Shown here one piece after another: positions 4,655 through 51,300 of a stretch of 64,000 bases of DNA (position 1 is the stretch's first letter; every line of letters begins with the position of its first letter). The position numbers and the translations under genes are program-made. The stretch is from Trichoplax sp. H2. Lineage: Eukaryota. Where the stretch lies: NCBI GenBank assembly GCA_003344405.1, contig NOWV01000125.1, positions 1 through 64,000 on the forward strand. The letters run 5' to 3'. The notes beneath the pieces are model-generated. The model ran no database searches and had not been told where the DNA came from. It worked only from the letters and a program-made list of their open reading frames with translations.

Positions 4655-5200
4655 TTATGAAAATTCCAAAGTTGTAGAAAATTAGAACTTTATTAGATCT
4701 AATACAAAGACTAGCTACACACAGCTCTACTCTAGACGAATACAACTACTGAAAGACTTCTAGAAAGAACAATCAGATAATCTAATGTCTCCAACTTTCG
4801 TACTCTCCGTAGCCTTCCCATCTACAATGAGCATAGCAGTATTCTAACATATTTTACACGTATTCAGATTATTATTAGTCACAATATTTTATAGCGAGCC
4901 ATCTTTAATTCAACATGAAAATGAATACAGTAATTTTGTAGACATTATTCCTACTACTCAAAGTACAATGAACTAAACATATCCTAATATATGATTTACA
5001 ATTCTATTTCTACCTCTAACCTTATTAGTAGCTCATCATCTTACTGTATATAGTCATCTGTATTTTAGTATAGAGTCTATCCTTACAGTCTATAATTATG
5101 GGCTACTAAATATATATCATAAGATAAATATAGAAAAGACACTACCGTACATCATACTAAACATGGCTAATAGTCTACAATTACAATACTAAGTTACTTT
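4655..5200. repeat. Dispersed ~550-bp repeat, copy 1 (similar to 22110-22680)
   Basis: Shared colinear blocks, e.g. ATTAGAACTTT..AGATCT..ATACAAAGA, CATATCCTAATATATGA.TTACA, GATAAATATAGAAA, AATACTAAGTTAC. Confidence 0.75.
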
Positions 5201-5271
5201 ACTTTTTATAAAACTCTATCAGTATGTAAGATTTATTTATGAATTTATAACGTTTTACTTCTTCTGGCTAG

Positions 5272-26800: not shown

Positions 26801-29800
26801 TAAGTAAATGTTTCATTGACCCCCACCACATTATATAATTGTTGGAAATTGATAAGAAATATATTTATCTACTAGTTATTTATGTCATAACAAAACCAGT
26901 GAATGGGCAATAATATATTTCAAGTGCTGTTGTGGTTATAAGTATTTAATGTACTGGTACTCTGTTGAATATTGCCGTTATGCGATAGATCGCATGATTG
27001 TAGCTGATCACGGCTAAAATAAAACTATCCGACATTTTCAGCAACTAAATATAAGAACTTATTTATCATTTGGATTACTGATGCACTTACAACTCTCTTA
27101 TCGGCTAGATTATTGCTCTCCTAATCCATGCAATCAAGGTAACTGCTCATCAATTGTAGGCGGATTCAAATGTACTTGTATTCCTGGATATACTGGACAA
27201 AAATGCGATGCTGGTAAAGTTGATTTTAAATATATACATTACTCTCTCTACTCGTTTTCGATTCTGAATATCTCAAACATAGAATTACATACACCGTCTT
27301 TAATGTCTGCAAATCTACTTTTAGTAACCCCTAGAGCTATAATTAGCCCATCAAGCAACACAACTATTGCAGCTGGTGTTAATATCACCTATAGCTGTGC
27401 AGCTGCAACTATTCCTGCAACTGCAATTGTATGGAGTAGAGTTGGTCAAAGTTCTTTACCATCTAATGCTGTCGTTAGCACAGTTGGTGTTAATAGCGTT
27501 CTAACTCTAATTAATGCCAGTAGTGTCGACAATGGTCGATATCAATGTGAAATCTTTATAAAAGACGGGAATGCTTCCTCCTCTATTCATATTTTCGTTG
27601 TTGGTATGCTATCAAATTCTATCAATTAATTTGATTAATTCTCTTTCCCTACTATGTGCTAACTTAATCAGAGTTTGATTAAAATACTAAGATTGATACA
27701 GTAGTAAACGATCGATCGATTATATTAAATCGTATGATACAATTAAACATCATCTATTTTCATAAATTAACTCATATTTTAGACCCCCCTGTACCGAGAG
27801 TATTGCCATCGGCTTTAACTCTTTTACGCGGAGGTACCTCAAGATTTACGTGCGATCCAGGAACTTCAGTTTATTCTAGTGTAAGCTGGTCAAGCACTAC
27901 TGGTTCTTTTCCAGCTAATCGTCATACCATCAATGGAACACAATTAACAATTAGCAAACTTGAAAATATCGATAGAAGTATAACTTGCTCCGTTAGCAAT
28001 CTTGCTGCTACTGCCAGCGGTGTATCTTATCTAACCGTACAAGGTTAATTTGCATAGAATGGTCAAGCTGTAGGACTAATTTGATTCCTTTATCGGATAG
28101 GAAAATTTTAATTTATTAAAGATTAAATATATTGGGATTAATGCTTTGTAACTTCTTGAAATGGACTTTTGTATTTAGAACTACCTAGAGCAAAGCTGAA
28201 TCCCAATTCATCCTTGGTTATATACAAAGTGGATGAAAATGTTGGTGTTCATCTTTGTCTAGCGGATGGAGATCCGGTAGTAGTTAGTCCTCGATGGACT
28301 CGCTCTGATGGTGTTCCTCTTACTTTTGCTGATACCTTAGCTAATCGTTTAACTCTCCGTCGAATTACTGCAGCTAAGCAGGCTACGTATATCTGCACAG
28401 GAACTTCTAGCATTGGTTCATCAACAACAACGTTAGACGTTCAAGTAGCATGTAAGTACAGTCCTTCGCCAGCCTTTGTGTGTATTTTCAATTCATTGAC
28501 CATGCCTCTTATTCTAATTTTGATCGTTGCTAGCCCAAGCATATGTCAGGCGTTTTGCTAATTCACCGGGATCTACTGTCTCTTACCAAGCTTTCTCTAC
28601 AAAAAATTCAGTTAATGAAACGTCATCCAGCACTCATTATTTAAATATCCGTCTGAAACTCGATTCACTCAATGATAGCTTAATCTTTTTCCAAGGCAAT
28701 GGCTTCGAAGATCATACACCTGACACGATAAATTTCTTAGCCTTAGCCCTTACTGACCAACATCTCGGTTTTATGTATTCTAGTGGACCAGATGTCGCTA
28801 ATAATCCAGGTATCATTGGTTGGATCATAATTCCAGATACTATGAAAACAAATACATGGTATTCAATCGCAGCTACCTATGAGTATGGCAATGCAACAAT
28901 ACAGATTAATGATGGACCAGTCTATCGCAATTACAGCCGAGAGAGTGGTCGATCAACTGTAATTACCCTAACTGACTGGTTGTATATTGGAAGTTTAAAT
29001 AATATGAATTCAAATCCTATTCCTAACATCACTGTTGGCTTCTCCGGTTGTATATCTTATCTTTCTGTTGACAATCATACCTATGATTTATCCAATAATA
29101 AACTTGAAGAGAGTAACACATTGGCTTGTGGCGATCCTTGCCAATTGAATAAATGTCAAAATCAAGCAACGTGCAAAAGCCATCCTACAGATAATAAATA
29201 TTACTATTGCGATTGTCAATCGGGATATTACGATTACCTATGCAGCAGTAGCTTTGCTTCGTTAGCTGATCCTTGCTACAGTGCGCCATGCAGAAATGGC
29301 GGTACTTGTGTAAGTACGGGTGGTAGTAACTATATCTGCCAATGTGCTTTACCTTATTCAGGAATAACAAACTGTGATTCAAGTAAGTATATGATGGCAA
29401 TTACTAACTGGTATAATTCACTAATAAAAATTATCCTCTAAATTCAATTCTGTTGCAATTGTGATCCATTTTTACAGCTATATCTCTCCAAGCTGACGAT
29501 GCTGCTAATTTTGATCGATATGGATATCTTCGCTACAGCATCAATTCAGTTAATAAGTAAGCAAAACAACAAGTGTAATAGATAAAATTCGTCAAGCTCA
29601 GCAGAGGATTAGATTAAAATTACAGCTTAAGCTTTTTATAAACATCCATTTATTTAATATCGCAGTTAACCAATATTTGCTGTTATATAGCATTTACATT
29701 ACTTTAAATTTTATAATCCTAATTGAATTCTTATTTTTTATGTAGTCAACAAGATATACAATTCCAATTTAAAACAACAGAAGCAAATACTTTGCTTTAC

Positions 29801-32422
29801 TGGCAAGGCGATGTAAGTTTTGTCCTGATAATATCATCGAAATTTATTTAATATACAAATCAATCTGGAATATTTCATGAAACAGTATTATTCGCTAATT
29901 TATAATAAAGTATTAAGACAAATAGATCACTTTATAGAAGTATAAATTCTTATAATACAGTACAGGTATTTGAGATTGTTCTAAGTTATCTGTATCTAAA
30001 AATAACAGTGTAGATCGCATGAAAATTGTATATACGCATAAATGAAATATGAAACACAATACATACGAAAAGTTTTACGAACGAGAAAGAGCATTTAAAA
30101 TTTACTGTATCCTAAGAGTAGACATACGCGAAACATCGTGAATTGAATTAAATAAATAATAGTATATAGAACAGGTGTCAAATTTAATTTTTGATCTACT
30201 ATTACCAATCGCTAAGTTTAGGTTCCATCTATATTTTGAAATTCAACTCGTTTTAACCTCGTGTAGTGTAGAATAAGATCTCAAATTTAATTTTACTCTA
30301 CCATTAACAATCGATATGATTATGCTGTAATTTTAATACCGTATGTAGAAACAAAAATTAATAACATGAAATTTCAATAAAATATCAGATTGAACTCTAT
30401 TCTACAGTTTCATATCGACACTATGTTCTCATTCGTAATGAAAACAAGCTTCACGAAAGCGCAAGAACCATTTACTCTTGTCCATACTAATTATTAACCA
30501 CTAAATTTGTTTAAGCCTAACATAAAAATTAGTTTAAAAATTACTAAAAAATATTTCATTGTTTGCAGCTGGATATTATAAGCGAATAAAAAGCATGTTT
30601 GTTTTATTTTGAAAATTTATTCTCTACAAGAATAGAAGCTATGAAAATACATGTTTCAGTTAATTGAGACTAATTTCACATTTGAAACTGTACTCGATTA
30701 TAGATTAATTTTAATGCCAACCAATACATGTATATAAGGTTAAGCAGCGGTGTCGTGCAGTTAAGGTGAGCAGTCGTTAAGGGCTTTATGCTCTCCATAT
30801 ATATGTATATATATATATATATTTAATCAATCGAACACTACATCGATTAACTTTGCTTCGTAAATTTATTGGCAGATTCAACTTAGGTAGTGGCGAGGCA
30901 GTCCTAAATACAGCAGCTACTGTTAATGACAACCAAAAGCACACTGTTCATGTTATGAGGTTTATACACTTATTTATATGATTATCTACTTGATGTTACT
31001 ACCAGGAATGAAACCTAGCAATTATTGGTTAAAAGATATTTTTGAAGGGTCTTGTCAATACGGGTATAAACAGAGTTAAATTAACGAATTATAAATTATA
31101 GGAGCGGTAGACAAGGCTATCTAGCAGTTGATGGAGTGATTGCAACTGGCCTTGATGAAGCACCTGGTCAAAATGAATCTTTGGCAGATTTCTCAAATGT
31201 TTATTTTGGTATGTACATCTATTTTATGTCGATTCAGCTAGGTTCCACTACATATATCCTTTGCCAGAATAGGAGCTTGTCTCTGTATTAAGCTGTTATA
31301 AATGTTTAAATGTAACTAGATTGCAAAGTATATCTATTTTTAGAATATCTCCTGTTGATCCTAGTGTATGTAAAGCATTGCTTCAATTATATATTATAGA
31401 ACAGTGAAATAAACGGGCACATCAGATTAGTTGATCTAACCCATAAGTTACCAGGCAAATTGCGTTTACCTTGATAATAACTTCTGTATACATATGGCTC
31501 ATATATCCGTATATATTAGCCTATAGATCAGCCTAAATCTGCTCGAATTATGCTGCCTACTTCTCAAACAATTTAATGTTAATTTAGTATATTGATAGCC
31601 GGCCATAAAATTATACTACGGGATCAGAGCAATTATATAACGATAGATAAAGTTTCAAAGCACAAAATATTCATCATAGACCATTTAATAGTCATCCATT
31701 GTTAAAATGATTCTTTATAAAGATATACACAATATAGTATGATCTTCTCTATCGTTAGTAATGGCAAATAGTAGATAGTAATAGCCATCCTGTAATCATT
31801 TTTAGCTAGATACTAGTGTACCTAGGCGTATATAAATACACCCGTTGGAGACGTCTAGTTCACTCATCATTTGTAATACTCGTCGTAACTAATTTTTAAT
31901 TTATGTACTCGCACAATTCACAGTACAGTTTAAGTAGATATAGGTATCAAACATGCATTTCAATTCCAGTTAAAATCCTTGTATTTTATAATACTATGCA
32001 CTGTAGTGTGAGCACATACGCAAAATTTTTTATATAGTAAGATTACATACAAGTCTTATAGCTACTTCCTAAAATTGAATAAACCTACTTATTTTTAGTT
32101 TTAGAGCTGATTAACAGTACCTAAAAATCCGTAAAATCATTGCCTATAAGAAATTCATATTGACTGACAAGTTTATCCCAATTTTAGGAGCTAAAATGGA
32201 TTTTGTTTCTGTACATAACTTTAAATAAGAGTGATAATGCATTTGACCTATTGAATTCATTCGATTTCTGTAGGTGGTGCAGAGAATATTGCCTTTAAAA
32301 CTGGAAATCGATTCTCTGTTGGAATGATTGGATGTATTGGTAATATCAAAATTTTCAATACTCCATTATCAATTTCCGATAGCGTAACAGCCGTTGGGGT
32401 TACCAAGTGTAATGGATTTTAA
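20897..32422 (+). CDS. Secreted ECM-type protein: SP-EGF-D8C-EGFx4-Igx3-LamG-EGFx2-LamG (perlecan-like C-terminus)
   Basis: Exons 20897-20929 + 21057-21084 give signal peptide MQAFTLVYIFTILHVLVLG. EGF 23884-23991; D8C 24198-24410/25047-25205; EGFs 25318-25422, 26455-26562, 26699-26803, 27109-27213; Ig 27325-27603, 27783-28043, 28179-28451; LamG+2 EGF 28534-29382; second LamG over 29478-29556, 29746-29812, 30704-30765, 30876-30959 (RFNLGSG..VND..H.V), 31102-31208, 32274-32422 (GMIGCI, TAA). Exon phases are consistent throughout. Confidence 0.9.
22110..22680. repeat. Dispersed ~550-bp repeat, copy 2 (similar to 4655-5200)
   Basis: Same colinear blocks as copy 1; lies in intron 2 of the 20897-32422 gene. 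Confidence 0.75.
30160..30325. repeat. Short intronic direct repeat, 2 copies, period ~104 bp
   Basis: TAGAA..TCAAATTTAATTTT..TCTAC.ATTA.CAATCG at ~30166 and ~30269. Confidence 0.7.
30797..30822. repeat. (AT)n microsatellite
   Basis: ATATATATGTATATATATATATATAT in an intron. Confidence 0.9.
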
Positions 32423-34638
32423 TTTAATAATTCGAAGTAAGCATTCATACTTTGGAATAAATAATAATGCAGCAATTTAATATTATTTTTTCTGACGCAT
32501 TAAATAAAGTTTTATCTTTGATACTTTTATAATTAATGATACAAATGAAAGATTGTAATGGCTCCGAAATACTTTGTAAGACTATGTGTTCTAACGAAAA
32601 TACAAATGTACTGTATTAGTTTAGTCTTGATATCATTAATAGGACACAACTTGCTGATTGTGATTATAAAACTTTCCGTGATTAAAATGCAATATCATAC
32701 GAAAAAATTTGAACTGCTTCAAGAATAAATTTATTTTTGATTATAATTACTGCAAATATGAATTATAAACAAAACCTAGATAGTATAATTTAGTTTTGAT
32801 CATCTTTCTATCGCATATGATGGCCAATGAGAGTCAAGAACTGAAGCTGTTTAATAGCATTGTACGATAAATTTGCTCTTCCCCTACCTCTTGATGTAAT
32901 CGAATGGAAACTGGAATGAAAAGTAGTATCAGTACGAGAAAATACTCAGATGTCCAAGTATTCTTCCAGATAACACAGCTACGCTATTTCTTAATTAATT
33001 ATCAGCAAGATTACGATTTCTTGCAGTAGAATCTCAAAAATTTGAATCTTTAACAAACATTTAGCTTACTCATTTCTAGAATATAATTAATTAGCCTTTT
33101 TAAGATGCGATAGAATAATCCCGCGACTACATCATTTTCAGAATTAAATCTATTTCATGCAATATTGCTAATTTAAAAAGTGTGAATGATCGGCTCTAGC
33201 AGTAATATATAATTCAATCGAAATGATAATTTATTTATAAATTATGGAAATACACAATAAATATTCGATATAATTAGCAACAAGTTAGACAAATCCTGTT
33301 TCTGCCAAGTTAAATCGGCATTTATTACCATATTTTGAGGGCAATACTGCCCTTTCAAATATCACATTGAGCTATCTTGATTTTAATTTCTGTAATAAAG
33401 TATTTTGCATTTATCTAATAGTATTTAGCCATTAATAACAAGCTCCATGTTATGATTTTGATCTTAGATTATATTAGCATAAGAATACTATTATATAGTG
33501 CATAGTACAAAATAAAGAAATTTCTAAATTTAATCCTAAATTGAGATAATTATCTGTGATCCTTCACAATAACAGTTGGAGTATCTATGATTCCCTTATC
33601 CAGAAACTAAGCTAGCATACAAGAGAATTATAACATTACGATCTCATAAGTGGAATGCTTTATTCAAAATTAATCCTACATTGCAATACAAATACTGCAG
33701 TATCTTCTAAGATAGAAGAATAAAAGATATTTCTCCAATTTATTAAACTAAGCTGATTCTAAACTTTTCAAGAGCATCCATTAGCAGCTCGATGCATTAG
33801 CTTCAATTTAATTCATCATTTTTTGAATTTAAATTCAAACCTGGAGTAACTAGAGTACCAAAATTTGTGTTAAACTAAAAATAGGATTTTATTAACCATG
33901 ATTAAATTAAGCGCCGTTAAATAAGACCCTATTCTATTGACGGCGAGGGCAAATTTCGCTATCCAAATATACATAATCTTAAATATTAGCCGAGTAGAGC
34001 ATACTATTGAGATAAACACTTATTGTAGTTTCGGAAGATTGAGAGTTCGTCATAACAGCAAGTAATTACACCAGATTAATAGAAGAAAATAGTAATATTT
34101 ATAGTATGTGTTTGAAGAAACCGAATTTTGGCTACAATAATTAATAAACGACATGAAATACTGGAGTAGCTTAAGTAAAGTAGAAGACGTAAAGTGCACA
34201 AACTACAGCTCAGTTAAATACAACTAGCTAATGAAATTGATGCTTAAGAATTGTTATATTGTGGAAAGCACAACACGGGAGAATTAATTGTAAACGTGAA
34301 AGAATTTATTAGAAGAACTTACTTTTACGATAAGGTATTTCTACAATACAATCAAGCTAGAGCATAAATAGAATTCCGCGAATAAATTTAATAAAGATAA
34401 ATCACGAATACTTGGAATTACGCTACAATTTAGTGTAAGTTAGTTTTATTATTAATAGAATGTACCTGGTATACCATATGTGTTTACTATTAACTACTAC
34501 CTCATAATGAATAATATATACTTTTCATTACTAAAAAACAATTTGTTATTCAAATATATATATAATATAAAATAGAAATAAAATATACAGCATCCTAGCA
34601 ATGTTAAAGCTTATTGCGATTTAACAATTCGCAATTTA

Positions 34639-37600
34639 TCAGGCTTCAGAATTGATGCAATTAAGATGTTTCGCCAATGCTCGTTTTAGTTTATCTAAGT
34701 AATAAATATCTACTGATCTTGTTTTCGCTTTATATTCATGTAATGTTTCCATAATTTTAAATTCATCATCCTCTGTTAGTAAATCACCTTCATTATTTCG
34801 CTTGTACGGAAATATATATCTTTTATCTTTGATTAATTCGTTATACTCGTGTATAACTTGTAATGCGGAGAATTCTTCAGCAAAAATATCCTTCTGAACC
34901 AAGACTTCATTCATTGTATTAAAATACTTTCGACATATAATATGAGCATCGAGACTCTTCATCAAGAAGTGATATTGTTTTTCTTGTTTATCGCCGTACC
35001 ATATAGCAATACAATTTTGTTTCTTCGTTACATCGTATGCTAATCTTTCGTAATAACTATCTGATGTTATAACATCTCCAATATAATATAATTCTAATAT
35101 AGATCGCGCCATTTTTCCATGTGCTGTAGGAAATTGATTAAATAACTCCGTTGCATCTGTACCCAATACGAATTTTAACATTTCGTCGCCTCCTGGATGA
35201 AGATCAATATATTCACCGATATCGTATACACGACGGTCTATAACAATCCAACAACCGTTACGTCCTCCATTATGAGTAACAATATCGTATATCGATATAT
35301 TCATTTTACAATCGTTTGTTATAGGCTTATATACTTCGATTTTAATTCGATCAGTTGTTAACATTCTAATTAATTCTTTAATACCTATAGCCGATTTGAA
35401 TATTCTAATCATATCTCTATACAAAGTTGTAGGACCGCATATATAGATCAATGCATCTTCTTTACATAATTCGATTAATTTATTTTGACCTTCGCTCGAT
35501 GAAAAGTAACTCGTAACTCGACCGTTGTAAATATACGAATATTGCGATCCTTTCCACTTTTGTATATTATCAGCTGATAGACATAGCTTCGTATAATTTA
35601 CTGTGTCTGGAGCATCTTCTATAGTTCTACAACCAAAGTATAACAACATACGACGATTTTCATTCATCTTCTTATTACGATCGATAAACGATTGATATGG
35701 AGCTATACCCGAACCTATACCAATCATCACAATTGGTTTAGAACTATCTTGCGGAAGTCGGAAAGAAGAATTAATAGGGAATACATCAATTACTTGATGT
35801 TGATCGAATAGATTATCGATAGGCGCAAGTATCGGCGATACTTTACCGTTATCGATACGTTCGACAAGTAATTTAATATTATCGTTATCGAACGAGGCGA
35901 TGTTATACGTACGTGGCAGTTGCGGAGGAACTATAGATGGAGAGCCATGAGGTTTATTATTTGTAAAATCGGCGTATTTAATAAATATTTCTTTAGATAC
36001 TTTTCCGTTAGATATTCCAAAATGATTATGTACGAATTTTATCCACTCTTTTTCAGTAGTATCTTTAGTATGAATATCTAATACAAAATATTGGGGCGCA
36101 CTGTCATAATTTGTAATAGTATTCGGTATAAGTACACCAAGTTTATCACCCTCTTGATACGAAAATTTCTTATCGTAAATAGAAATGGTTACATATTGTA
36201 GAGTATTGCGCTGATTGAGATTAGCAGGAGTAGAATGAATCGTTGCACTAAATAATCGGTTAGTAAATTGGCGATCATCGATTGATTCGTTAAATTCTGT
36301 ATTAAGTTGTATATGAGCGCTCTTCGATTCTGTCTCTTGGTTAGTTACAGTAACAGTTCTATCTAGCTGAGTTACAAGAGATAAAACTCCTAATGCCTTG
36401 TTACGATGTATATCCAACATTCTATGATAAGAACGTTCAAATAAATCAAAAGTCTTATTTAATTGTGAATCGTTCAATGCTTTTATAAACTGTTTAGGAC
36501 TTCCAGTTTTCTCAAATCCTAATTTAAACGCTGTTAAAAATTGCCTATAAGATTTAGGTATTAGCCTATATCCATTACTGAACATTTTTCCAATGAGAGA
36601 CTTACGTATTCGATCAATAATTATATCGAAAACAGCGAAAATGGGATCAAATAACCCGCTAGTAGAATTTCCAATTAAGCTATTTTCTTCCGCTATAGCG
36701 AATAATTCTTCATCTTTAGCAGTGTACCAATCCAGGTTCGCTTCAGTTAAAAGATGAGATGTTTTCTCCTTTGATGGATCTAAAAGACAATTTGGAGCTA
36801 TAGGTCCAGTTTGACCTATATGTCTCCAGTGTGAAGGAATAATACTTATTTCAGCATAAGAATTAAATTTTGGCTCCGATAGTGTTTCGGATCCTCGGTT
36901 AGCTATTTCTATTAATTTGTTAAGATGGATTATAATTTCATCTTTATCGCCATTGTACATTGCAGATTGAAGATCTAATGCTGCATCGACGATATCATAG
37001 CATGCGTATCTAAGAGATGCAAGTGAGTATCCATGAAATGAAATTTCTGTACATGAACCTAAATCTTCGACATTAAAGAATGGAAATCTCATTTTTAAAT
37101 TATTAAATGAGAATCCTTCTTCGGGCCTTTTTAAATCAATATTATCTATATTTTGAGTATCATTTGTATTTGAAGGAATTCGATCTAATATTCTACAACA
37201 ATGTACCCAAGATTTTTGTAGATTATCCGGTAATTTAGGAATATCAAATCCATTAACCTTTCCATAGTAATTCCAATAAATTAAGGCTATATTAACAGCG
37301 GCTGAATGTAGAATAGTAATTATACTCTTAGGTAAACTTTCGATTTCGTCACCAATATTAGGTAACTGGCGTACCTTTTCTCGGAAACGCGGTGAATAAC
37401 TATTGGGAAGGTTTTTTGCAAATAGAAACAACGCTCTACATTTATCAGGTAATTGATCAGGATGTGGATCAGTAATTAATTTAGGCGGATAAAATCCATG
37501 ATAATATACATGACCTTCTGGTCTTGTTTCGGGATTTTGATCCCACATTTCTAGTAATTCTCTAGCAGGACTTGTTCTTGGGCTATGTTGATCATCGTTG

Positions 37601-37956
37601 CTAGATAAAATAGATTGTAATCGATGTCTATTGATAAGTAACCGAGAATTAATTGAATGTTGTAATTCTTGAGTATAAGCTTGTGCTTGAGTTTGATTTT
37701 TTGCTGTGTAGAATTGTGATTTACCTACTCTTATTAATACTTGTTGAGTTGATAATGCCTTGATTTGTTGACCGCATAATTTAGTGATAGCAGAGTGTAA
37801 TTGATTTCTATTCGAGTTTTGTGTAATGAGATAAATTTTGACTTTATTTCGATGTGAATCAAGGCTTTGTTGTACTGCTTTACTTCCAATAGCCTGAGCA
37901 ATGGTTCCTAATGTCTGTTCCATGATGGAAATTTCTTCCGCTTTGGCAGTCTCCAA
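34639..37956 (-). CDS. Fusion protein: IDO-like heme dioxygenase domain + FNR-family FAD/NAD(P)H oxidoreductase + cytochrome b5-like heme domain
   Basis: 1105-codon uninterrupted ORF. IDO-like motifs: HGFYPP, PKLPDNLQKSWVHCCRILDRIP, TSGLFDPIFAVFD, YRLIPKSYRQFL, DIHRNKALG. Reductase motifs: PRTYNIAS, GKVS, FRLPQDSSKPIVMIGIGSGIAPYQSF, LYFGCR, IYICGP, IEVY. b5 motifs: CWIVIDRRVYDIGEYIDLHPGG..GTDAT..AHG. Track start is TTG; first ATG is at 37923; the frame is open up to a possible acceptor at 38015. Confidence 0.85.
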   Translation of the reverse strand: METAKAEEISIMEQTLGTIAQAIGSKAVQQSLDSHRNKVKIYLITQNSNRNQLHSAITKLCGQQIKALSTQQVLIRVGKSQFYTAKNQTQAQAYTQELQHSINSRLLINRHRLQSILSSNDDQHSPRTSPARELLEMWDQNPETRPEGHVYYHGFYPPKLITDPHPDQLPDKCRALFLFAKNLPNSYSPRFREKVRQLPNIGDEIESLPKSIITILHSAAVNIALIYWNYYGKVNGFDIPKLPDNLQKSWVHCCRILDRIPSNTNDTQNIDNIDLKRPEEGFSFNNLKMRFPFFNVEDLGSCTEISFHGYSLASLRYACYDIVDAALDLQSAMYNGDKDEIIIHLNKLIEIANRGSETLSEPKFNSYAEISIIPSHWRHIGQTGPIAPNCLLDPSKEKTSHLLTEANLDWYTAKDEELFAIAEENSLIGNSTSGLFDPIFAVFDIIIDRIRKSLIGKMFSNGYRLIPKSYRQFLTAFKLGFEKTGSPKQFIKALNDSQLNKTFDLFERSYHRMLDIHRNKALGVLSLVTQLDRTVTVTNQETESKSAHIQLNTEFNESIDDRQFTNRLFSATIHSTPANLNQRNTLQYVTISIYDKKFSYQEGDKLGVLIPNTITNYDSAPQYFVLDIHTKDTTEKEWIKFVHNHFGISNGKVSKEIFIKYADFTNNKPHGSPSIVPPQLPRTYNIASFDNDNIKLLVERIDNGKVSPILAPIDNLFDQHQVIDVFPINSSFRLPQDSSKPIVMIGIGSGIAPYQSFIDRNKKMNENRRMLLYFGCRTIEDAPDTVNYTKLCLSADNIQKWKGSQYSYIYNGRVTSYFSSSEGQNKLIELCKEDALIYICGPTTLYRDMIRIFKSAIGIKELIRMLTTDRIKIEVYKPITNDCKMNISIYDIVTHNGGRNGCWIVIDRRVYDIGEYIDLHPGGDEMLKFVLGTDATELFNQFPTAHGKMARSILELYYIGDVITSDSYYERLAYDVTKKQNCIAIWYGDKQEKQYHFLMKSLDAHIICRKYFNTMNEVLVQKDIFAEEFSALQVIHEYNELIKDKRYIFPYKRNNEGDLLTEDDEFKIMETLHEYKAKTRSVDIYYLDKLKRALAKHLNCINSEA

Positions 37957-38721
37957 TGATGTTGATGAATACTTTGAATTAGTAGTTAAAAAGGTTTCAA
38001 GATTGATTTCTCTATCTACAGAATACTTTACGGTTTACAGTAAGTTTTGAAAATATCAATGATTCATTATTCCAGTACGGTATATTTCAAAACTTTTGAA
38101 TATATATATAATAATATTAGTTGACTATCTATCAAATGTGCTTCAAGTTACTTTATTCAAATTAGACTATAGTATGTTCATTAAGCATGTTTATTTTGAA
38201 AGATTTAAATGTGTCAAGAGTTGTGAAATTTTCTTAGTATAGTGTAGCAAACCCTTGATGTCTGCTAGTAGTAAACGTATACAATCGCCATACGAAACAA
38301 AATTGTATGGTACAGCGGGAGTCGTACTTGCAAAAGCGAATAATCTACAACTCTTTCATCTACCACTGACTAATAGTTTGTATTCGAAATTTCAAAGAAA
38401 TCAAGTTACTCAATACTGCAATAAAAACATCAACAGCCAATTGCTCAACGTTGTACTGATCTGTCTGCGTGTTATTGGAGCTCAATTTAAAGTTGATGGG
38501 ATGAAACGGGGTACCCGGGGAACTAATTTGCCAAGAGTTGCAATTAGACCTGAGAAATACGGTGGCTCACAATGTGCATCCTGGCCTAGGATGGGACGGA
38601 CGATCGTTTGACCGCCTGAAAAGTGGCGCAGGTGCAGTTACGAGCATCGCAGCAGAGTCACATGACAGCTGTGTCATGGTTATTCGTTCAGTAAGTAAAA
38701 ATGGCCGACCCTCCCGACACT

Positions 38722-38932
38722 GGTTTAGAACTTCAAGTCTGATTAGGCAGCTACTGTACCAGTGCCGGACTGATCATTGGTTTACTATATCTATTCCTGA
38801 AAAATTCTTCCTAGTAGAAGCTTGAATGCTGTGCGAGTACTTGTGTAGTGCATCTCTTCTTCTACGAAGAGGTTTTCAGGAACAGTAAACGACTGATCAG
38901 TCCGCCACCAATCCGAGCTGAAGTTCTAAACC
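38722..38932. repeat. Imperfect long inverted repeat / fold-back element (MITE-like)
   Basis: GGTTTAGAACTTCA..GGACTGATCA..GTTTACT..TTCCTGAAAA (38722-38803) is the reverse complement of TTTTCAGGAA..AGTAAAC..TGATCAGTCC..TGAAGTTCTAAACC (38873-38932); the interior also self-pairs. Confidence 0.85.
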
Positions 38933-39084
38933 CAAAGCATGGAACTGCATGGTAGTGAAAGCAGTACAGTGTACGGTTTGAAATGGACACACCAGTTAAA
39001 ATGACCAGAGAAATAGTCAGCCTCCATATTTTCGGCTAAAGAAAATCGTGGATGGTCCTTCTGTCATTCTTTCTGTAGCACACA

Positions 39085-39296
39085 CACGTGACAGGACTGT
39101 ACAGTGTACAGTGTACACTCAGTACAGTACAGGAATGCGAGTGTACTGTACAGTACAGTACTATCCGGTACCATTTTTACAGTACTGTACACTGTACAGT
39201 ACAAGGGACTACTGTGAAAGAGTACAGTACTATACAGTTTACACTGTACTGTACTGAACACTACTGGAACTACTATACTGTACACTGTACAGTATA
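39085..39296. repeat. Low-complexity TACAGT/ACTGTA palindromic motif array upstream of RPL10A
   Basis: Dense run of GTACAG, CTGTAC, TGTACA and CAGTAC words about 150-350 bp upstream of the TOP tract. Confidence 0.8.
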
Positions 39297-39436
39297 GCTA
39301 TCGCTACATTTACTGACCTATCCCTAGTTAATACAGTATAATAAAAGGTCCAATCCACGCGTGCGTATTTCACTCCCTTCGATACTGAGTCATTGACTTT
39401 CGGCAAGGTACTTGACTTGCTGTACCACGACTGTCG

Positions 39437-39454
39437 TTCCCTTCTTTCTTCTCC
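39437..39454 (+). promoter_or_regulatory. 5'-TOP-like polypyrimidine tract / TCT-type initiator of RPL10A
   Basis: TTCCCTTCTTTCTTCTCC shortly upstream of the ATG; typical of ribosomal protein genes. Confidence 0.65.
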
Positions 39455-39479
39455 GTCGTTTTGGTGACCGTGTGGCAAC

Positions 39480-41316
39480 ATGAGGTAAGAAATCTTTCCT
39501 TCATCTCCTTCATCCTAATGAAATTAAATAGTTTAAGCCTAATTTTGAAGCAATTATTGGTTCATCTTGGCTTAAAATCCATTTTTTCTGTCATCAGATC
39601 GATTTAAGTTGATTTTGGATGTGATTGTAGTTGGCATTGCTGCATTCCATTATGGGTGTTAGACTGCTAGCTCATATATTACTATACTGTACAGTAGATC
39701 ATGGGTTTCTTGATCCAATAGCTGGGTAGATGGATCAATTTTTTCACTTACTCTTGCAAGTTACAACATGTTGTTATCCATAAGATAGACATCAACTGCA
39801 GAATAAACTTATCTATGTGTCCTATTTTTCTTGACTAATGTTCTATTGGCCTTGATGTTTCCTGTAGTAAAATTTCGCGCGATACGTTGTACGACTGTGT
39901 TCGTGATGTCCTTCAGCGCTCACAAGATAAGAAAAGAAATTTCTTGGAAACGGTGGAATTACAAGTTGCCTTGAAGAACTACGATCCGCAAAAGGACAAG
40001 CGTTTTAGCGGTACTGTCAAGTATGTATCGTAAATTACTTAACAGTTGTTGATCGCCTCGATCTTGCACAAAATAACGGTACAAGTCGATCATCGTGACC
40101 AATCAAATTGGTCATACGTTACTTGACTATCATCCTATCGATCAGTTTTTGTTTTTTATCCATGCGTTCCATGTTGTATATTCGAGTATAGCCTATGGAA
40201 TCCTTCTGGTCCAATATCGATTAGTTTATGAACACAAGAGCAGTTTGATGAGGACAGTGCTTAAACTAGAAACTAAAATAATAGTCTTGATATATACATG
40301 TAGAGTAGCAGCATGTGATGTCACATGCAATTTAATACTCGTCAATCTTTATCCTAAGTGAATGTACTCGAATGGAAGACATTTCCACGTTGTCATTGTA
40401 ATTTAAGTTGAAGCCATGAAATCCTAGTAGTTTGTCCAGTTTTCTGCGACCAATCTATATAGATAAACTACAGGCTACGATAATCCGTTGTCGAACAGAA
40501 TCGATGATTGTATTGAACACAATAAACGCAATACATTTGATACTTCCTATCAATCATGATGGTTGGCATTACTCGTCTGTCTTTGCAAATCTTAGTCTCA
40601 ATCTTGAAGGAGTTAGGAATTGACGCCATCATGGTTTACGATCCATGTGTGCTATAATTGTGCAAGGCATAATTAGATTCTTAATTTCGTCAGAGAAACA
40701 TGTATTACTGTACAGTACTTTTATTCTTTCTAAAGGCAGTATTCTTACGTAAATGTGGCAAAGCTCATTTTTCAATTTTAAGAATCATCGATCTGATGCA
40801 ATGTTACCTTTAATCTTCTTTAGATTGAGACATACGCCTCGGCCAAATCAAAAAGTATGTGTCTTTGGCGATGCTCACCATTGTGATGAAGCTAAGTCAA
40901 ATAATGTACCATCGATGGATGTCGACGCTTTGAAAAAATTGAATAAGAACAGAAAATTGATTAAAAAATTGGCTAAAAAATACGATGCATTTATTGCTTC
41001 TGAGAGTTTAATCAAACAAATACCTCGTATCATGGGACCTCAATTAAACAAGATTGGTAAATTTCCTACCATGTTGACTCACAACGATAACATGAATGCC
41101 AAGATTGAAGATGTCAAATGTACCATCAAGTTCCAAATGAAGAAAGTGTTATGTCTTGGTGTTGCCATTGGTAATGTTAGTATGTCGGAAGATGAATTGG
41201 CTGCCAATATCCATTTAGCCGTTAACTTTTTGGTATCATTATTGAAGAAAAATTGGCAAAACGTTCGCGCATTGTATATTAAAAGTTCGATGGGTAAATC
41301 CTATCGCTTATATTAG
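39480..41316 (+). CDS. RPL10A: 60S ribosomal protein L10a (uL1)
   Basis: Exons 39480-39484 (ATGAG|gtaag), 39868-40020 ([36 protein letters not shown]) and 40824-41316 (..[52 protein letters not shown]). Confidence 0.98.
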
Positions 41317-42335
41317 ATGGGTAGCTAATCCTTTTGCACTGTGTACTGCAGTATGCAATGCGTATCTCTCTACCTTGATTGAAACATCGTCATTGTTGGA
41401 AATATATATGTACAGGCAGTGAGACTAAGCACTAAAATAAAAGAATTTTATGGTAATCTAGGGTGCATTTTCCTGTGATTGTTAGATCCTGTAGTAGAGT
41501 TTCTCTAGCGTGGGATTTACTCGTCTACGTATAGGGTAGCATACAACTTGTTACGTATTAGTATTCTAGTGTAAAGCTGCTACCGTTAAAATTGATTGCT
41601 AAGTTGATTAAAGCGCTGGTGTACCATGCAGCAATTAGGTCAAGACGCTTCAAATTTTCATCATTTAAACATTGACTGCATGTTGATGATATAGCAAATC
41701 GGCGATAGGTGTCAAGCTTAGCTATCAATACTAATATATCATATACTGTCACTTTCATAGCTATTCGAATAGAATTAAGAAAGTTGCTTACAGTATAAAA
41801 GTTTTCCAACAGTAATACTGTTGTGCATAATCAGTTACTATCTTGATCCGTTTATAGTTGAAAAAGTGAATCTTAATTCATTTGATGTGGCGTTAAAGGT
41901 GCATACCGCCCTTTCTGTTTGTAGTATAAATGACGGTGCAGGCCGCATGATAGTTTACTAGCAAACAATTTCATCAAATATCATGATAACTTACGATCAG
42001 GACAAATTACGTATGATTAAATACTATAAATTTTAACGATTAAGTTTATTATGATCGATTCTTGCTGCTGAGTATTTCTACAGTAAATATATGGTGCGAA
42101 CAAGTTGTTATATTGACGTAACAGTCGAGAGTTGGAGCAAATGCAATAGGAATTCTTCGTGCATTGGTAATATCTCTGTTAATACGAATGTGTAGGTGCA
42201 AAAATAGCAATTGTTGGTTACTAGCATTAGTAAAAAGTAAGGATAGATAAGGTATAAATACTCACGGCTCTGATGAGCTGTGAACCCGTGATTTAATATC
42301 GGTTGAAATTTGCTTGATATTGAATACTTCGCAAA

Positions 42336-45354: not shown

Positions 45355-48300
45355 TTAGAAGCTGCGCGTAACGAATAGTGATATTAATGCAACATGCAAT
45401 AAAGCAAAATAAATAACAACCCAGATTCTATTCGTTGGTAAGTGCCGCAATTGCCGTCGGATATTACTAAAGCGATTAAAGCAAAATTCGCAAAGTCAAT
45501 TACAATTTTCTAGCATATTTAAAGGCTTAAAAAAATCATGATGTGCATAATATTAATGCAATAGTTACCGTTTCAATCGTGGCCAAGAGTTATATTTCAT
45601 TTGTTTCGTAACTTTTTGCACTGACATTAAAAGCAAGAATTGCTTAGGACTAAAAATCTTAATTGCATGATCATAATCTACAAAAGAAAACCAAAACAAA
45701 AGCATACATAGGCTTGCTTCAGGTGAGTCAATGATTTCCATTTCATTGTCATCTTCTTCATCCATGTTAATAAATACCTATAAAATTTCATAAAATTTCT
45801 GGTTTATTACCTCGTAGAATCGAATTATCAAATTTTGATATTGAGCGGTATAAATCAACGCGGAAACATCGCAATTAAAACTTTGTTCCGAGAGCGCTCA
45901 CCTCTCGATTCTCAAATGAAGGCGTAACATAAACAGCCAGCTCATCCTTAGTTTTCTGAAGTGATTCTTCAGCATTTATCCTTCTATCTTGTTCCATCTG
46001 TAAACGTTCCTAAAATAATTTGATAGATTAAAGAATATAGCACATACACCTTAATTAATTTTTTGGAATGGAGCTTATTACTTGTAGTTCATCCATCTTC
46101 CGTAGCAGATCATTCTGCATTTCTGTATACTGAAGCCTATGCAAGTATAGTGCAATTCAAAGGGAATCAGCGACCGAATCACAACAAGTTAAGCAAGGCA
46201 TATGCCATGGTACGATAGAATGTTCTACCTTTCATTTACTAATGACGCATCTGGTAATAGTTTAACTTGACCATCAATTATATCTGTTAGAGAAAAAGTA
46301 TAGAAATTTTAATAGACTATCGCATTAGGACATTTCTTGTTACTAAGTCACCTTACATGTGAAGAGGCTAGTCAAGTAACACTTAAAGAACGAACCTTTA
46401 GCAACAGAGTTTCTTGGCTCTCCACTGTCTAACGGGCTCAAGGATCCTTCCTAACGTTTACAGAAATTTCAAATAACAATCAGTTTGTAGGAAGCTAAAG
46501 TATAACAGTATATTAATATAGGAAAAACAAATGTTATTTTAACTTACAACACTTTTTGAAGTTATAATAGCTTCATTAATCATAATAGAGTTATCAGGCT
46601 CGCTGCTTCCATTCAAGTTACCAAAAAGAGCATATTTAATTCATTAATAACAAAATTATGTTGAAAGTTTAATGAAGAACTCTACCTTAACTTCTGTTGA
46701 CTTTTAGCACTTTCATAATTCTTTAATAACGATAGAGCCTAGATAAAGATTTAAATCGAACTAGAATTAAAGATCTATATCTACAGCACCTAAAAATGGC
46801 AAATACTTACCTCAATCTCAGCTACTAATCCTTCAATTCTTTCATTTTGATAATCAACAATTCCTTGCATACGATCGCATTCGTCAATTTTCTGCTTGCA
46901 AATCTCTTCAGCGTCAACTAGCTGCTTCTTGAGGTCTTCGTTTGATTGATTCAATGAAGCCAAATTACTACGATGTTGATCTTTACCAATTTCTTGGTTA
47001 CTCTCAATATGAGCCATAACCGTATTAACCTGCTGCTGTAAGTGGTCTCGTTCTTCTAATACAAGTTGATAATCATTCTGCAATACATCATATCGATCTA
47101 TATGTGAAACATTATTAGAGTTTTCCTGCTCTAGTAAGAACTTTAGAGATGAAATTTCCCTACGTAGTCCGGACTCAACAGCAGCTTTCTGATGTAGCTG
47201 TGTTATCATTTCTTCCCTTTCCATAACATTCTGACGGAGATTTTCGTTAAGCTCTTGAAACTGATTATGCAAATTATCTACTTCCTTTTGTAATAACTTG
47301 TTTTCTGACAAGTAATCATTAATTTTAACCATATATTCATCTCTTTCTAAAAGAATTCTTGATTTTTCATCAATATGAAAGGCATTTTCTTGTTGAACAG
47401 TTTCAAAAGAATTCTCTAATAGCGAATACTTAGATTGTTCGTCTTGTAATTGACTTAATAATCTGGAATTCTCTTCCAAAATTCGTTCACAGCTGGCATT
47501 TAGTACCTCTAGATCGCACCTTTGCTGTACTAGCTCATCCGTGAGTGTTTTATTTTCTTTGTAATACTTATCATTGGAAACTCCTATTTTGCTAATCTCA
47601 GAATTCTTACCGTCAACCTCCGATTTTAATGTCTCCGATAAGTCTCGATAATTACTTATTTGATCCTCTAGATTATTAATTTTATTATCTTTTATAGAAA
47701 GCTCGTCGACTACACTATCATATCTGGCACTTAAGCTTCGATAGTTATTTTCTAACTTCTTCATTTTATCCTGGCATTCATTATAGCGATTATCAAGTTC
47801 CGTATATTGCAACTTAAAACGTTTTTCGGATTCATCAACATCCTTTTTTAGATTTTGGTACGAATTCTTCGAGTCAGACATCTCCTTTTGGTATTTATCT
47901 CTATCTTTACGAATAGAATTCAATTCTTGTAGCAATTCGTTATTGGATTCAACAAGAACCTGAAGTTTAGGTAACAAACTTTTCTCATTTGCTGTAATTT
48001 CAGCTTTTGCTTCACTGATATGATCGTAACATTCATCATCCTTCTTTGTCAATTGGTTACTATCCGAAGTTGTCTGAATTAATTCCCGTTCTAACATACA
48101 ATCTTGCATAGCTGGATTGTGAATATCATTGGTGTACTCTGATTTCGACTTTCGTGACTCATACCAGCTTTCTAGAACAGCTCTTGCTTCAGTAAGTGAT
48201 GCGTCCGTCTCTTTAGTGGAAGAAAGTTGAGCGGCTAATCCTTCATTTCGGGACCGAAGGTGTTGAATTTCTTTTTTACATTCTTTTAAATCAGTTGATA

Positions 48301-51300
48301 ATGCAATAAATTTTTGCTTAGCAGTATTCAGTCTTGAGGATAGTCGTTTATTCTCGTTACCTAAGTGATTATTTTCCTCTTGTATTTCATTTAACTGACA
48401 CAATTTAGCCCGCTTATCTTCAATCTCTATTGCTAATGATTCTTGATCCTTCAGTCCTTTTTCAACTTGTTGCTCATAAGAAATTAATTTGTCGGAGTAA
48501 CTAGATGACTGATCTTGCAGTCTTTGCAAGTCGGTACGACATTCTTCCAACTCTAATAGAGTGTTATTGTGATTTTTACGCAGCGCTGCCATCTCGCTAT
48601 CATACTTAGACCGTATTTCATCATAATCTTTTCCCAACATATGATACGTCATTGACAAATTTTGAATGTCGTCTACTTTAGCACTTAGTTCCAATTTCAA
48701 CTCTTCAATAACCAGATCTCTTCCATTAACTACTTCATTCAATTTAATGATTTCTTCTTTATAATTTTCAACTTCATTACGATATTCCTCTAAATTGCTA
48801 TCGTGTTTGGCTTTAAGTAATTGTATTTCGGACACAACGCTGTCATAATCTGTGTGTACAGCCTGTAATTCAGCATCCTTTAATTGCATTAATTTGGTCA
48901 TATTGGCTTGTTCTTCTTTTATCTCACATATTATATCTTTTAAATTGGTATTCTCAGCATTTCTCTCTACTAAATCATTAGCAATCGCATCTCGTTCTGT
49001 AGACGTTTTTTCTAATAAACTGTCTTTTTCTTTCATCATGCTATCAAATTGACCCTTTTCTATTTGGAACATTTCTATTTGTTTATCCTGAGTTTCGGTT
49101 AGATGAGCACGGCCATTTTCTAATTCATCTATCTTCATTTGTAAATTGCTATTCTTATTTTTAAATTCTTCAGCTTTAGCTTTATGTAGCTGCAATTCCT
49201 CCTTGAGCGAACTAAACATTTGCTTAGCTTTACGAAGTTTAATCGCTAACTGCTCCTTTTCGTTGGTTATTCCTTCTATTTTAGCTTCATATTCTTTACA
49301 CTGAAGTAGTTTTTCTTGTAAGGCATCAATTTCTCTAGCTATTAACTCTTTTTGTTGATGCTGTACCTCTAATTCACTTTGCAAATTGTGAACATTGTCC
49401 TGTTGTTCATTACGCTCTCTAACAGTATCGTTTACTTGTTTCTGTAATCCAGATACCTCATCCATTGAAGCTGACAACTGTGCTTCTAATTCTGTTACCT
49501 TATTTTGGAAACTTGATGACATATCATTAAACGAACATTCGAAATCAGCTTTTGAAAGTTCTAATCGAGATATAACGCTATCATAGTCTTTACGCAGAAC
49601 TTCAAGTTCTGAAACTTTTGCATTTATTTCGTGGACCGTACTATTTTGTTTCTCTTCCAATTTATGTATCATATTTGTCAAACTTTTATTCTCAAGCTCC
49701 TTTTCTTCCAAACTTTTCGCCACACTGCTTCGCTCCACTAGAGAGCTTTCTAATAATTCATCTTTTTCTTTTATTACACTCTCAATTTGACCCTTTTCGT
49801 TTTCAAATTCTTCCAGTTGCTTTGCTTGAGTATCAATAACTTGAGTATATTTACTTTCCAAGACGTCTACTCTAGATTGTAGATCAATGTTTTCCTTCCT
49901 ATATCCTTCAGTTTCAGATTTTTGATGTATTAACTCTTTCTTAAGATTACTGAGGACTTGCTTAGCCTTATTTAATTTATTGACTAACTGCTCATTTTCT
50001 TTGGTTAAATTATCAAACTTTTCTGTGTGATCTTTATATTCTAGCAATTTCTCCTGAAATAAATCGTTTTCTTTGGCCAGCAATTCCTTTTCATTACGTT
50101 CTATTTCGATTCCTCTTTCTAAATTTAATATTTGCTCATGCAAGCATTTGCGACTTGCAACAACATCATCTGCCTCCTGTCGTAATTTAGATATTTCGGA
50201 TACTGAATCGTGTAACTGATTTTGCAATTCTGCTACCTGAATTTGCAAACTGGACGACATATTTTCCAATGAAGTTTCATGAGCACTTTTTGATAACTCA
50301 AACTGAGATAAAACATTTTTGTAATCGACACGTAGAGCTTCCAGTTCCGAATCTTTCACTTTTATTTGATTTGTCGTAGTCTTTTGCTCTTCTTCCAATC
50401 CTTGCAGCGTAGTTGTCAAACGAGCACTTTCTGTACATTTCTCAGCTAGATCGTTAGTAATTCTATCACGTTCTAATATAGATTTTTCCAACAAGTCGTC
50501 CTTTTCCTTTAAAAGACAATCTAAACAGGCCTTTTCATTTTGAAACTCATCTGCTTGCTTATTTTGAGTATCAATAAGACGTGCGCAATCTGATTCCAAG
50601 AAATCTATCCTAGATTGTAGACTAGTATTCTTGTCTTTAAATTCTTCCAACTCAGATTTCTTATGTTGCAACTCCTTCTTTAGGGAATTAAGCATTTGTT
50701 TGGCTTTACTTAATTTAATAACTAGTTGTTCATTTTCACTAGTCGTATGAGCTAATTTTGCTTCATAGTCTTTATACTCTAGTAATTTAATTTGAAAAGT
50801 ATCATTTTCCTTTGCTAACAATTCCTTTTCTTGACATTCAGCTTCTATCTCTTTGTGTAGAATACAATTTCGATCTTGTAGCTCGTCACGCTCTCTTACA
50901 GTATCATCTAGTTTCTGACATAATGTAGATATTTCATCCACTGATTCCGATAGTTGGTTTTCTACTTTAGCTAGTTTATGTTGAAGGTCAGCAGATAAAT
51001 TCTTTATCGAAGAATCATAATCAGCTTGTGACAATTCCAATGACTGCAAAGCGTGACGATAGTTTGATTGTACAGTGTCAAATTCAGAATCCTTATGCTC
51101 TAATCTCACTCTCATATCTTCTAATTCTTCTTCCATCTTTCTTAGCGAATGCTCTAGATTACCATTCGCTATACGATTCTCTTCCAAAGTAGTATTAATA
51201 TTGTCTCTTTCAGTCATAGATTTTTCGAGCAAATTATCTTTTTCTCTAATGATGCCATTAAGGTGTTCTTTTTCATTTTCAAACTCTAGCATCCGATTAC

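Follow-up and report, generated by a model that had tools for sequence, protein, structure and literature searches.

How did an animal come to encode, in one uninterrupted frame, a protein that joins a haem domain resembling indoleamine 2,3-dioxygenase (IDO) to a flavin reductase and a cytochrome b5? The locus in question lies on the minus strand of a 64,000-nucleotide stretch of the Trichoplax sp. H2 genome (NCBI GenBank assembly GCA_003344405.1, contig NOWV01000125.1, positions 1 to 64,000 of the forward strand), hereafter the window, to which all positions refer unless stated otherwise; its product is called the window protein. An earlier reading of the letters of this stretch alone (the original prediction) had proposed that the gene was acquired from bacteria, from fungi or protists, or from a large DNA virus, and then domesticated. 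We propose that a ready-made bacterial fusion was probably passed whole to an ancestor of this animal lineage long ago and was domesticated there. This account requires the fewest events, because our protein searches recovered no eukaryotic homologue, the named members of the family and the nearest named relative are bacterial, and the gene is intronless beside spliced neighbors. If the transfer is true, a complete three-module redox machine moved from bacteria into an animal nuclear genome and survived there until its compositional traces were lost.

Anatomy and divergence of the window protein

From stop to stop, the gene forms one open frame of 1131 codons (34639..38034), bounded upstream by an in-frame TAA (38035-38037) and ending in a TGA (34639-34641); counted from the first ATG (37923-37921), the product has 1094 aa. 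Residue numbers follow the 1131-codon frame, in which the first ATG is residue 38, and the features are collected in Table 1. A search of the whole protein against Pfam with hmmscan (E ≤ 0.1) returned only Cyt-b5 (PF00173, residues 920-988, E 1e-17, 64.3 bits against a cut-off of 23.7) and NAD_binding_1 (residues 770-874, E 2.8e-7), with no direct match to IDO (PF01231) or FAD_binding_1 at that threshold. The N-terminal part was connected to IDO through intermediates. A phmmer search with residues 38-660 as query covered 1,835,955,588 representatives and yielded only four proteins at E ≤ 0.001 (E 3e-8 to 4e-4). All four carry Pfam IDO (E 1e-23 to 3e-34), and two of them (1067 and 1086 aa) consist of exactly IDO, FAD_binding_1, NAD_binding_1 and Cyt-b5.

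We aligned the window protein with other members of this family in three alignments (A1, 13 rows; A2, 28 rows; and a further alignment, A3). A1 was collinear from residue ~170 to the C-terminus, and its invariant positions include His543, the motif SG..P.F..D..R (459-475) and HPGG (946-949). We take His543 to be the equivalent of His346 of human IDO1. A family hidden Markov model (HMM) built from 26 members, with the window protein left out, matched the window protein at 237.9 bits in three collinear pieces (174-378, 445-690 and 700-1004). In the PDB, a family profile that includes the window protein matched CysJ (7e-54), CPR (2e-46) and residues 34-359 of human IDO1 (1.4e-33). The AlphaFold model made for residues 150-600 reached a pLDDT (predicted local distance difference test) of 72.6 and a pTM (predicted template modelling score) of 0.75, with low confidence in the insert at 400-458 and in the linker. 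When the model was compared with the PDB using Foldseek, all 38 listed matches were human IDO1 chains (best E 1.3e-7, TMt 0.72). Profile and model thus identify residues 171-600 as a very divergent homologue with the predicted fold of IDO.

The other modules were recognized more directly. NCBIfam and PDB matches group the reductase with the FAD/NADPH modules of CysJ, CPR and P450-BM3, and the motifs RTYNIAS, GSGIAP and YICG can be read in it. The cytochrome b5 domain matched PDB cytochromes b5 at E 1.4e-11 and keeps His972 in A3. No relatives of the N-terminal extension (residues 38-170) were detected.

Table 1. The fusion gene, its transcribed flanks and the modules of its product
Feature	Positions	Strand	Residues	Basis
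Fusion coding sequence, 1094 aa	34639..37923	-		Frame, ATG and stop read; RNA contigs without joints
Transcribed upstream stretch, 5' untranslated region of at least ~675 nt	37924..38599	-		RNA contigs 37754-38548 (X16) and 37710-38599 (X19), collinear with DNA
Transcribed downstream stretch, 3' untranslated region of at least 285 nt	34354..34638	-		RNA contig 34354-35235 and sequence read
Lineage-specific N-terminal extension, ~135 aa, rich in Q/S/N	37525..37923	-	38-170	Missing in 12 of 12 other A1 rows; HMM match starts at 174
Divergent IDO-like haem domain	36235..37524	-	171-600	Intermediates, family HMM, predicted fold
Lineage-specific insert, 59 aa	36661..36837	-	400-458	Gap in other A1 rows over most of its length; pLDDT <50 (model residues 251-309)
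His543 codon, presumed proximal haem ligand	36406..36408	-	543	Column invariant in A1, A2 and A3
CysJ/CPR-type FAD/NAD(P)H reductase, connecting subdomain shortened	35335..36234	-	601-900	Pfam, NCBIfam cysJ, PDB BM3/CPR matches
Cytochrome b5 domain	35059..35298	-	913-992	Pfam, PDB; HPGG 946-949, His972
C-terminal helical tail	34642..35058	-	993-1131	KSLDAH and FPYKR..G motifs in common with P0004 and P0126

We further analyzed how far the window protein has departed from its family. Of 120 positions that are at least 95% conserved in 40 other members, it keeps 71, with one gap; by module, the counts are 39/75 for IDO, 20/27 for the reductase and 12/17 for the b5 domain and tail. In its FAD connecting subdomain, where residue 690 meets residue 700, it lacks about 55 columns that the other members occupy in A1. 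Asn711 stands where at least 95% of the members have the Ser of the RxYS flavin motif, so that the motif reads RTYN. The IDO module has diverged heavily while the reductase and b5 modules are better kept, which suggests that the substrate has changed or that the catalytic role has relaxed.

Integration and transcription in the host genome

We compared positions 28500-41500 with contigs of two RNA-type runs (X16 and X19) and two DNA-type runs (X8 and X12). A 7333-bp DNA contig of X12 (31815-39146) crosses both ends of the frame at a depth of 38.9, with neighboring contigs at 34-44, and a 3544-bp contig of X8 (34562-38105) has a depth of 40.9. The interval 33600-39200 was present in 20 of the 24 listed runs, the carriers coming from eight studies under two organism labels, and 18 of the 24 contained at least half of the sampled words. 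Because a bridging contig exists at a depth equal to that of its flanks, we place the gene in the host chromosome at single-copy depth and exclude contamination. A microbial contig misjoined to animal DNA would account for bacterial-type relatives, but this explanation is extremely improbable given the independent contig over both junctions, the second run, the spread across runs and studies, and the G+C (0.33) and codon usage of the gene, which are host-like. The original prediction had likewise argued, from the animal genes on either side, against a pure contaminant contig, and had named junctions unsupported by reads as evidence that would speak against it; the junctions are bridged, and the domain content of the neighboring frames (EGF, D8C, laminin G, Ig, ribosomal L1/L10a, kringle-EGF-ZP and La) agrees that the flanking genes are of animal type.

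The frame is transcribed at a low level and is not spliced. RNA contigs cover 34354-35235, 35330-36917, 37040-37587 and 37754-38548 in X16, and 34921-35565, 36510-37612 and 37710-38599 in X19, at depths of 5-15 across the frame. The intergenic interval 32840-33707 has depth 0 in both RNA runs, which indicates that the frame's signal reflects transcription rather than carried-over DNA. There are no RNA joints inside the frame, while two neighboring genes gave seven GT..AG joints in the same comparison: six in the laminin-G/EGF gene at 28534-32746, whose internal exons measure 60-108 nt and whose poly(A) end lies at 32746, and one (40020>40824) in the plus-strand L10a gene, which starts near 39.9 kb. 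The absence of internal introns, from which the original prediction started, is therefore confirmed by the RNA of two runs. Its description of the neighborhood as intron-dense holds for these spliced genes but not throughout the window, which also contains an uninterrupted frame of 3357 codons (46790-56863) and exons of 305 and 400+ codons. The acceptor word CTGTAG, read as the hint of a gained 5' intron, is present at 38021-38016; the intron itself was not borne out, since the RNA contigs 37754-38548 and 37710-38599 run uninterrupted and collinear with DNA across 38016-38021, and the check on 5'-splicing that had been suggested thus shows no 5' intron.

The true 5' end of the transcript is beyond what assembled contigs can fix. 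On the 3' side, AATAAA words occur at 34450-34445 and 34310-34305, and no poly(A) site was seen. Four run-to-run differences fall inside the frame (two synonymous and two nonsynonymous), too few for a selection test, and a search of 32700-40900 with Rfam at gathering thresholds gave no match. Contigs that skip 97 nt at 37284-37382 were found in two DNA runs and one RNA run. We rejected 37284>37382 as a splice: its ends are GG..CT and it occurs in DNA too. Its shorter side of 23 letters also falls below the 31-letter bridging rule. No repeat accounting for this joint was seen; a rare deletion allele or an artefact of the assembly graph may lie behind it.

An intronless gene could also arise as a processed retrocopy of an intron-bearing host parent, and repeated DNA does lie just upstream (depth ~130 at 38048-38481 and ~1000 at 38916-39349, compared with ~40 elsewhere). 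We consider this origin improbable. No paralogue or parent of the window protein was found: a word-based search of 5.8 billion protein clusters (6394 candidates) gave one match, the recorded 1094-aa fusion product. Neither a poly(A) tract nor a target-site duplication was noticed at its 3' end. The repeat search found no flanking direct repeats or transposon ends around the gene; all it recovered was short inverted repeats within the repeat block upstream. A retrocopy would also leave the bacterial-only family unexplained.

Relatives and origin of the fusion

The family to which the window protein belongs is large. A search among 7996 candidates with a typical member, P0005, recovered 284 proteins at E ≤ 0.001. 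All of the 120 listed have IDO and Cyt-b5, nearly all have the reductase domains, and some have an added FHA or gamma-glutamylcyclotransferase-like N-terminus. An organism name is given for 15 of the 120. These 15 are without exception bacterial and represent at least four phyla; carriers include Chitinophaga, Desertivirga, Xanthovirga, Aquimarina, Chloroflexota, Polyangiaceae, Kofleriaceae, Oligoflexus and Cellvibrionaceae. The original prediction had pointed to similar uncharacterised multidomain proteins in microbes, and rightly so: the domain order of this family is that of the window protein. The bacterial fusions (P0005 and P0007 of Chitinophaga, P0095 of Oligoflexus and P0126 of a Coxiellaceae metagenome-assembled genome, MAG) are IDO + FAD_binding_1 + NAD_binding_1 + Cyt-b5 proteins, collinear with the window protein over ~960 residues, and have in common with it the conserved His, SG..P.F..D..R, GSGIAP, CG, HPGG and the helical tail. 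They are annotated merely as 'cytochrome b5 domain-containing protein', 'sulfite reductase flavoprotein-like' and the like. The window protein differs in that it is encoded in an animal nuclear genome, is only 20-26% identical to them, and has its own 135-aa extension, a 59-aa insert and a shortened FAD connecting subdomain.

When the window protein was compared with 127 other proteins by phmmer, P0126 scored 159 bits, P0004 146, the next protein 97 and P0003, an IDO + b5 protein with a C-terminal hydrophobic tail, 64. BLASTP gave two collinear high-scoring segment pairs against each of P0126 and P0004 (for P0126, 155-692 and 758-1120 at 24% identity), and identity to these two closest relatives over the full length is 24-26%. 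P0004 and P0126 are 51% identical to each other, and P0126 is the sole close relative of P0004. Three motifs common to the window protein, P0004 and P0126 are absent from the other members: KSL(D/E)AH, FPY..(R/K)..G and MI..GSGIAP..SF...ENR.

P0126 is encoded on a 41-kb contig of an uncultured Coxiellaceae MAG, where its neighbors are tightly packed and bacterial (histidine kinase, POTRA protein, Gp49, GST and aldehyde dehydrogenase). In the interval 2471-11081 of locus L001 of this MAG, the fusion gene (7911-11081) adjoins a GST and a gene of the metallo-beta-lactamase fold. A flavin reductase lies ~5 kb upstream, and no kynurenine-pathway gene was seen in 19 kb. A search of 401 sampled genomes of the same class, Gammaproteobacteria, gave 25 matches at E ≤ 1e-10, of which only two, the MAG itself and G228, extend over most of the length; the rest are stand-alone IDO-like or reductase pieces. 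One of the 25, G297, is flagged as unpublished, and no conclusion depends on it. A second scan of genome contigs found no contig beyond the Coxiellaceae one. A metagenome scan with A3 confirmed five of 231 pattern matches, all covering the reductase piece only (residues 708-879 or 750-785), and nothing closer. No eukaryotic relative was found by phmmer with the N-terminal part (1.84 billion representatives) or by the word search with the whole protein, searches that did not cover other species of the host phylum. Broadly distributed animal or holozoan orthologues, which the original prediction had said would overturn it, were thus not seen in either search.

For phylogenetic placement, 42 rows were chosen from 129 proteins to span the listing, and a tree was inferred with LG+C20 PMSF (quick search; unrooted, without eukaryotic IDO). 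The split {window protein, P0004, P0126} received an SH-aLRT (SH-like approximate likelihood-ratio test) support of 90, and the set of these three with P0003 was separated from the other 38 rows with support 99. When P0003 was left out, the three-row split had support 100 (LG+G4, quick). Trees of the separate parts were similar: the IDO part placed the window protein with P0003, P0004 and P0126 (support 99) and the reductase part placed it with P0004 and P0126 (support 97). In the tree of the b5 domain and tail, P0004 and P0126 were closest by path only, with a long-branch warning. The agreement of the part trees argues that the animal received the fusion as one unit rather than assembling it.

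The composition of the gene is largely that of its host. The coding sequence has a G+C of 0.327 compared with 0.325 for the window, and a GC3 (G+C at third codon positions) of 0.217. Relative synonymous codon usage correlates with that of pooled host exons at r = 0.81 and with that of the Coxiellaceae homologue at 0.65; for host exons against the giant coiled-coil frame of the window (46790-56863) the value is 0.75. CpG observed/expected is 1.92 in the reductase/b5/tail half (34642-36054), compared with 1.02 in the N-terminal half and 0.94 in the window. NCG codons number 22/81 in the reductase/b5 half against 31/339 in host exons (Fisher p = 5e-5) and 64/490 in the coiled-coil frame (p = 0.002 vs 22/81), while the N-terminal half (14/139) is no different from host. 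The richness in TCG and CGA words first noted by eye in the reductase/b5 half is thus real and confined to that half. The proposed comparison with host genes gave a divided answer, with host-like codon usage throughout and a CpG excess in the C-terminal half only. Host-like codons, 24-26% identity, added and lost segments and a very long branch together make a recent event unlikely and point to an old transfer. Domestication would have seated the gene between animal genes at single-copy depth with host codons in use, added the ~135-aa N-terminal extension and ~59-aa insert, removed part of the FAD connecting subdomain, and left a low-level unspliced mRNA.

The same very long branch and fully host-like codons also fit great age in place, and we evaluated the possibility of vertical descent, in which an old eukaryotic or holozoan fusion was kept here and lost nearly everywhere else, the bacterial copies being independent or derived from eukaryotes. 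In the unrooted tree the window protein does not fall within a named bacterial clade, the records of P0003 and P0004 leave their origin unnamed, and the fusion is patchy in Gammaproteobacteria (2/401 genomes). Vertical descent is nevertheless unlikely: it would require very many independent losses, and it is at odds with the lack of any eukaryotic relative in the phmmer and word searches, with a named membership that is bacterial in 15 of 15 cases across at least four phyla, and with an intronless gene whose RNA-confirmed neighbors are spliced.

A donor other than a bacterium, namely a protist, fungus or giant virus that itself bore a bacterial-type fusion, was among the sources named in the original prediction, and P0003 and P0004 could be eukaryotic. 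We regard such a donor as less likely still. None of the 113 pattern matches in one scan of viral contigs was confirmed, the nearest named relative is bacterial, and the closest Atlas clusters are 88% bacterial for the N-terminal part and 86% bacterial for P0003 (scores 0.81 and 0.93), although the clusters serve as leads only. What is supported of the claim of acquisition and domestication is a foreign gene of a bacterial family resident in the host; the viral source found no support in that scan.

Several observations weigh against a bacterial origin followed by domestication. If P0003 and P0004 are eukaryotic, the direction could be reversed. Legionellales-type bacteria take up host genes, and the Coxiellaceae bacterium may itself be a recipient, because the full-length fusion occurs in only 2 of 401 genomes of its class. 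The tree is unrooted and has no eukaryotic IDO outgroup, and the window protein is not nested inside a named bacterial clade. Its end branch measures 6.05 changes per column and its amino-acid make-up departs from that of the alignment; with so extreme a terminal branch and 24-26% identity, its placement could be distorted. The absence of introns is weak evidence alone, because a 10-kb intron-free frame lies 9 kb away. Apart from the NCG/CpG excess in the C-terminal half, nothing in the composition or codon usage is foreign. Expression of the gene is seen solely in low-depth assembled contigs, and the activity of the product may be altered or weak, because only 39 of 75 conserved IDO positions are kept and Asn711 replaces the flavin-motif Ser. 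Because the branch is very long and the tree unrooted, we infer the donor and the direction of transfer rather than read them from the tree.

No paper on this fusion gene was found in the literature searched. Passages of PMC3641634 report 12 bacterial-transfer candidates in one placozoan assembly; the fusion gene is not among the 12 named there, and the supplementary tables of that paper might list more.

Putative electron path and surroundings of the gene

The window protein is likely a self-sufficient, NAD(P)H-driven haem (di)oxygenase. Electrons would pass from NAD(P)H to FAD, then to the b5 haem and on to the IDO-type haem. The b5 domain would take the IDO-like haem from ferric to ferrous, which would permit O2 binding and the oxygenation of an indole or another aromatic substrate. 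The order of the modules suggests this path and fits the proposal, given in PMC4191572 with reference to Vottero 2006 and Maghzal 2008, that IDO has cytochrome b5 as its physiological reductant; the identity of this reductant has been debated (PMC4191572). Cofactor binding, the electron path and activity are what we infer for the protein, and its substrate may have changed. Judging by the many family-conserved positions that are altered, tryptophan may not be its substrate.

The proposed arrangement can be set beside known systems. Animal IDO1 and IDO2 (PF01231) have the same predicted fold and invariant His, but they are stand-alone proteins of ~400 aa that receive electrons from separate partners, whereas the window protein is too divergent for Pfam IDO. 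Self-sufficient haem enzymes with fused CPR/CysJ-type reductases form a class that includes P450 BM3 and NOS. This class uses the same FAD/NADPH module family (PDB 4dqk and 8dme) and the same single-chain logic from NAD(P)H to haem; the window protein differs in having no FMN/flavodoxin domain, a b5 domain in the place of the one-electron shuttle, and an IDO-fold catalytic haem domain. NCB5OR (cytochrome b5 reductase 4) likewise places a b5 and an FNR-type reductase in one chain, and the CYB5R4 b5 was matched in the PDB (E 2e-7), but its domain order is different, its reductase is of the b5R type and not the CysJ type, and it has no IDO-like domain.

In the window protein, IDO is covalently linked to b5 and an NAD(P)H flavoreductase, which makes the question of electron supply testable in one polypeptide. 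No description of an IDO-b5-reductase fusion family was found in full-text literature; the bacterial family is large and apparently undescribed in the literature searched. A bolder and rather doubtful suggestion is that the window protein is the first animal self-sufficient IDO-fold oxygenase, captured whole by an early-branching animal lineage and neofunctionalised, and that its present role is to produce or break down an indole or aromatic metabolite that is specific to the lineage and used in signalling or defence. Neofunctionalisation is suggested there because 36 of 75 conserved IDO positions are altered and an N-terminal extension and an insert are new. If this were true, the fusion family would be natural 'Rosetta-stone' evidence for b5 and a flavin reductase as the cognate electron supply of IDO-type enzymes.

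The fusion gene (-) and the ribosomal L10a gene (+) lie head to head, their transcribed parts ~1.3 kb apart (38599-40020); the first exon of L10a ends at 40020, and its RNA depth is very high. Two repeated elements occur on this side of the fusion gene. The first, at 38048-38481, has a DNA depth of ~127-143, about three times single copy, and is a moderately repeated element that overlaps the 5' leader. The second, at 38916-39349, sits in the gap that separates the fusion gene's 5' end from L10a and is a high-copy repeat (DNA depth ~1000-1160 compared with ~40 in the flanks). Every run shows dozens of joints and loose ends there. This repeat consists of words resembling GTACAGTAC and includes short inverted repeats at 39096-39293. 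Two plus-strand frames at 38243-38825, one of 122 codons and one of 106, had no match in Pfam.

Farther away, the 3357-codon frame at 46790-56863 (-) is a giant single exon of ~10 kb with strong AT and GC skew. Its sole Pfam match is a weak one to a CENP-F-like coiled coil (E 2.3e-5), and coiled-coil frames continue at 56905-58451. On the other side of the fusion gene, at 500-29440 (+), exons of the EGF / FXa-inhibition / D8C (uromodulin-like) types recur as sets near 6.7 kb, near 12.5-14.2 kb and near 25 kb, and Ig, laminin-G and EGF exons come after them. This region looks like either a tandem array or one very large extracellular-matrix gene.

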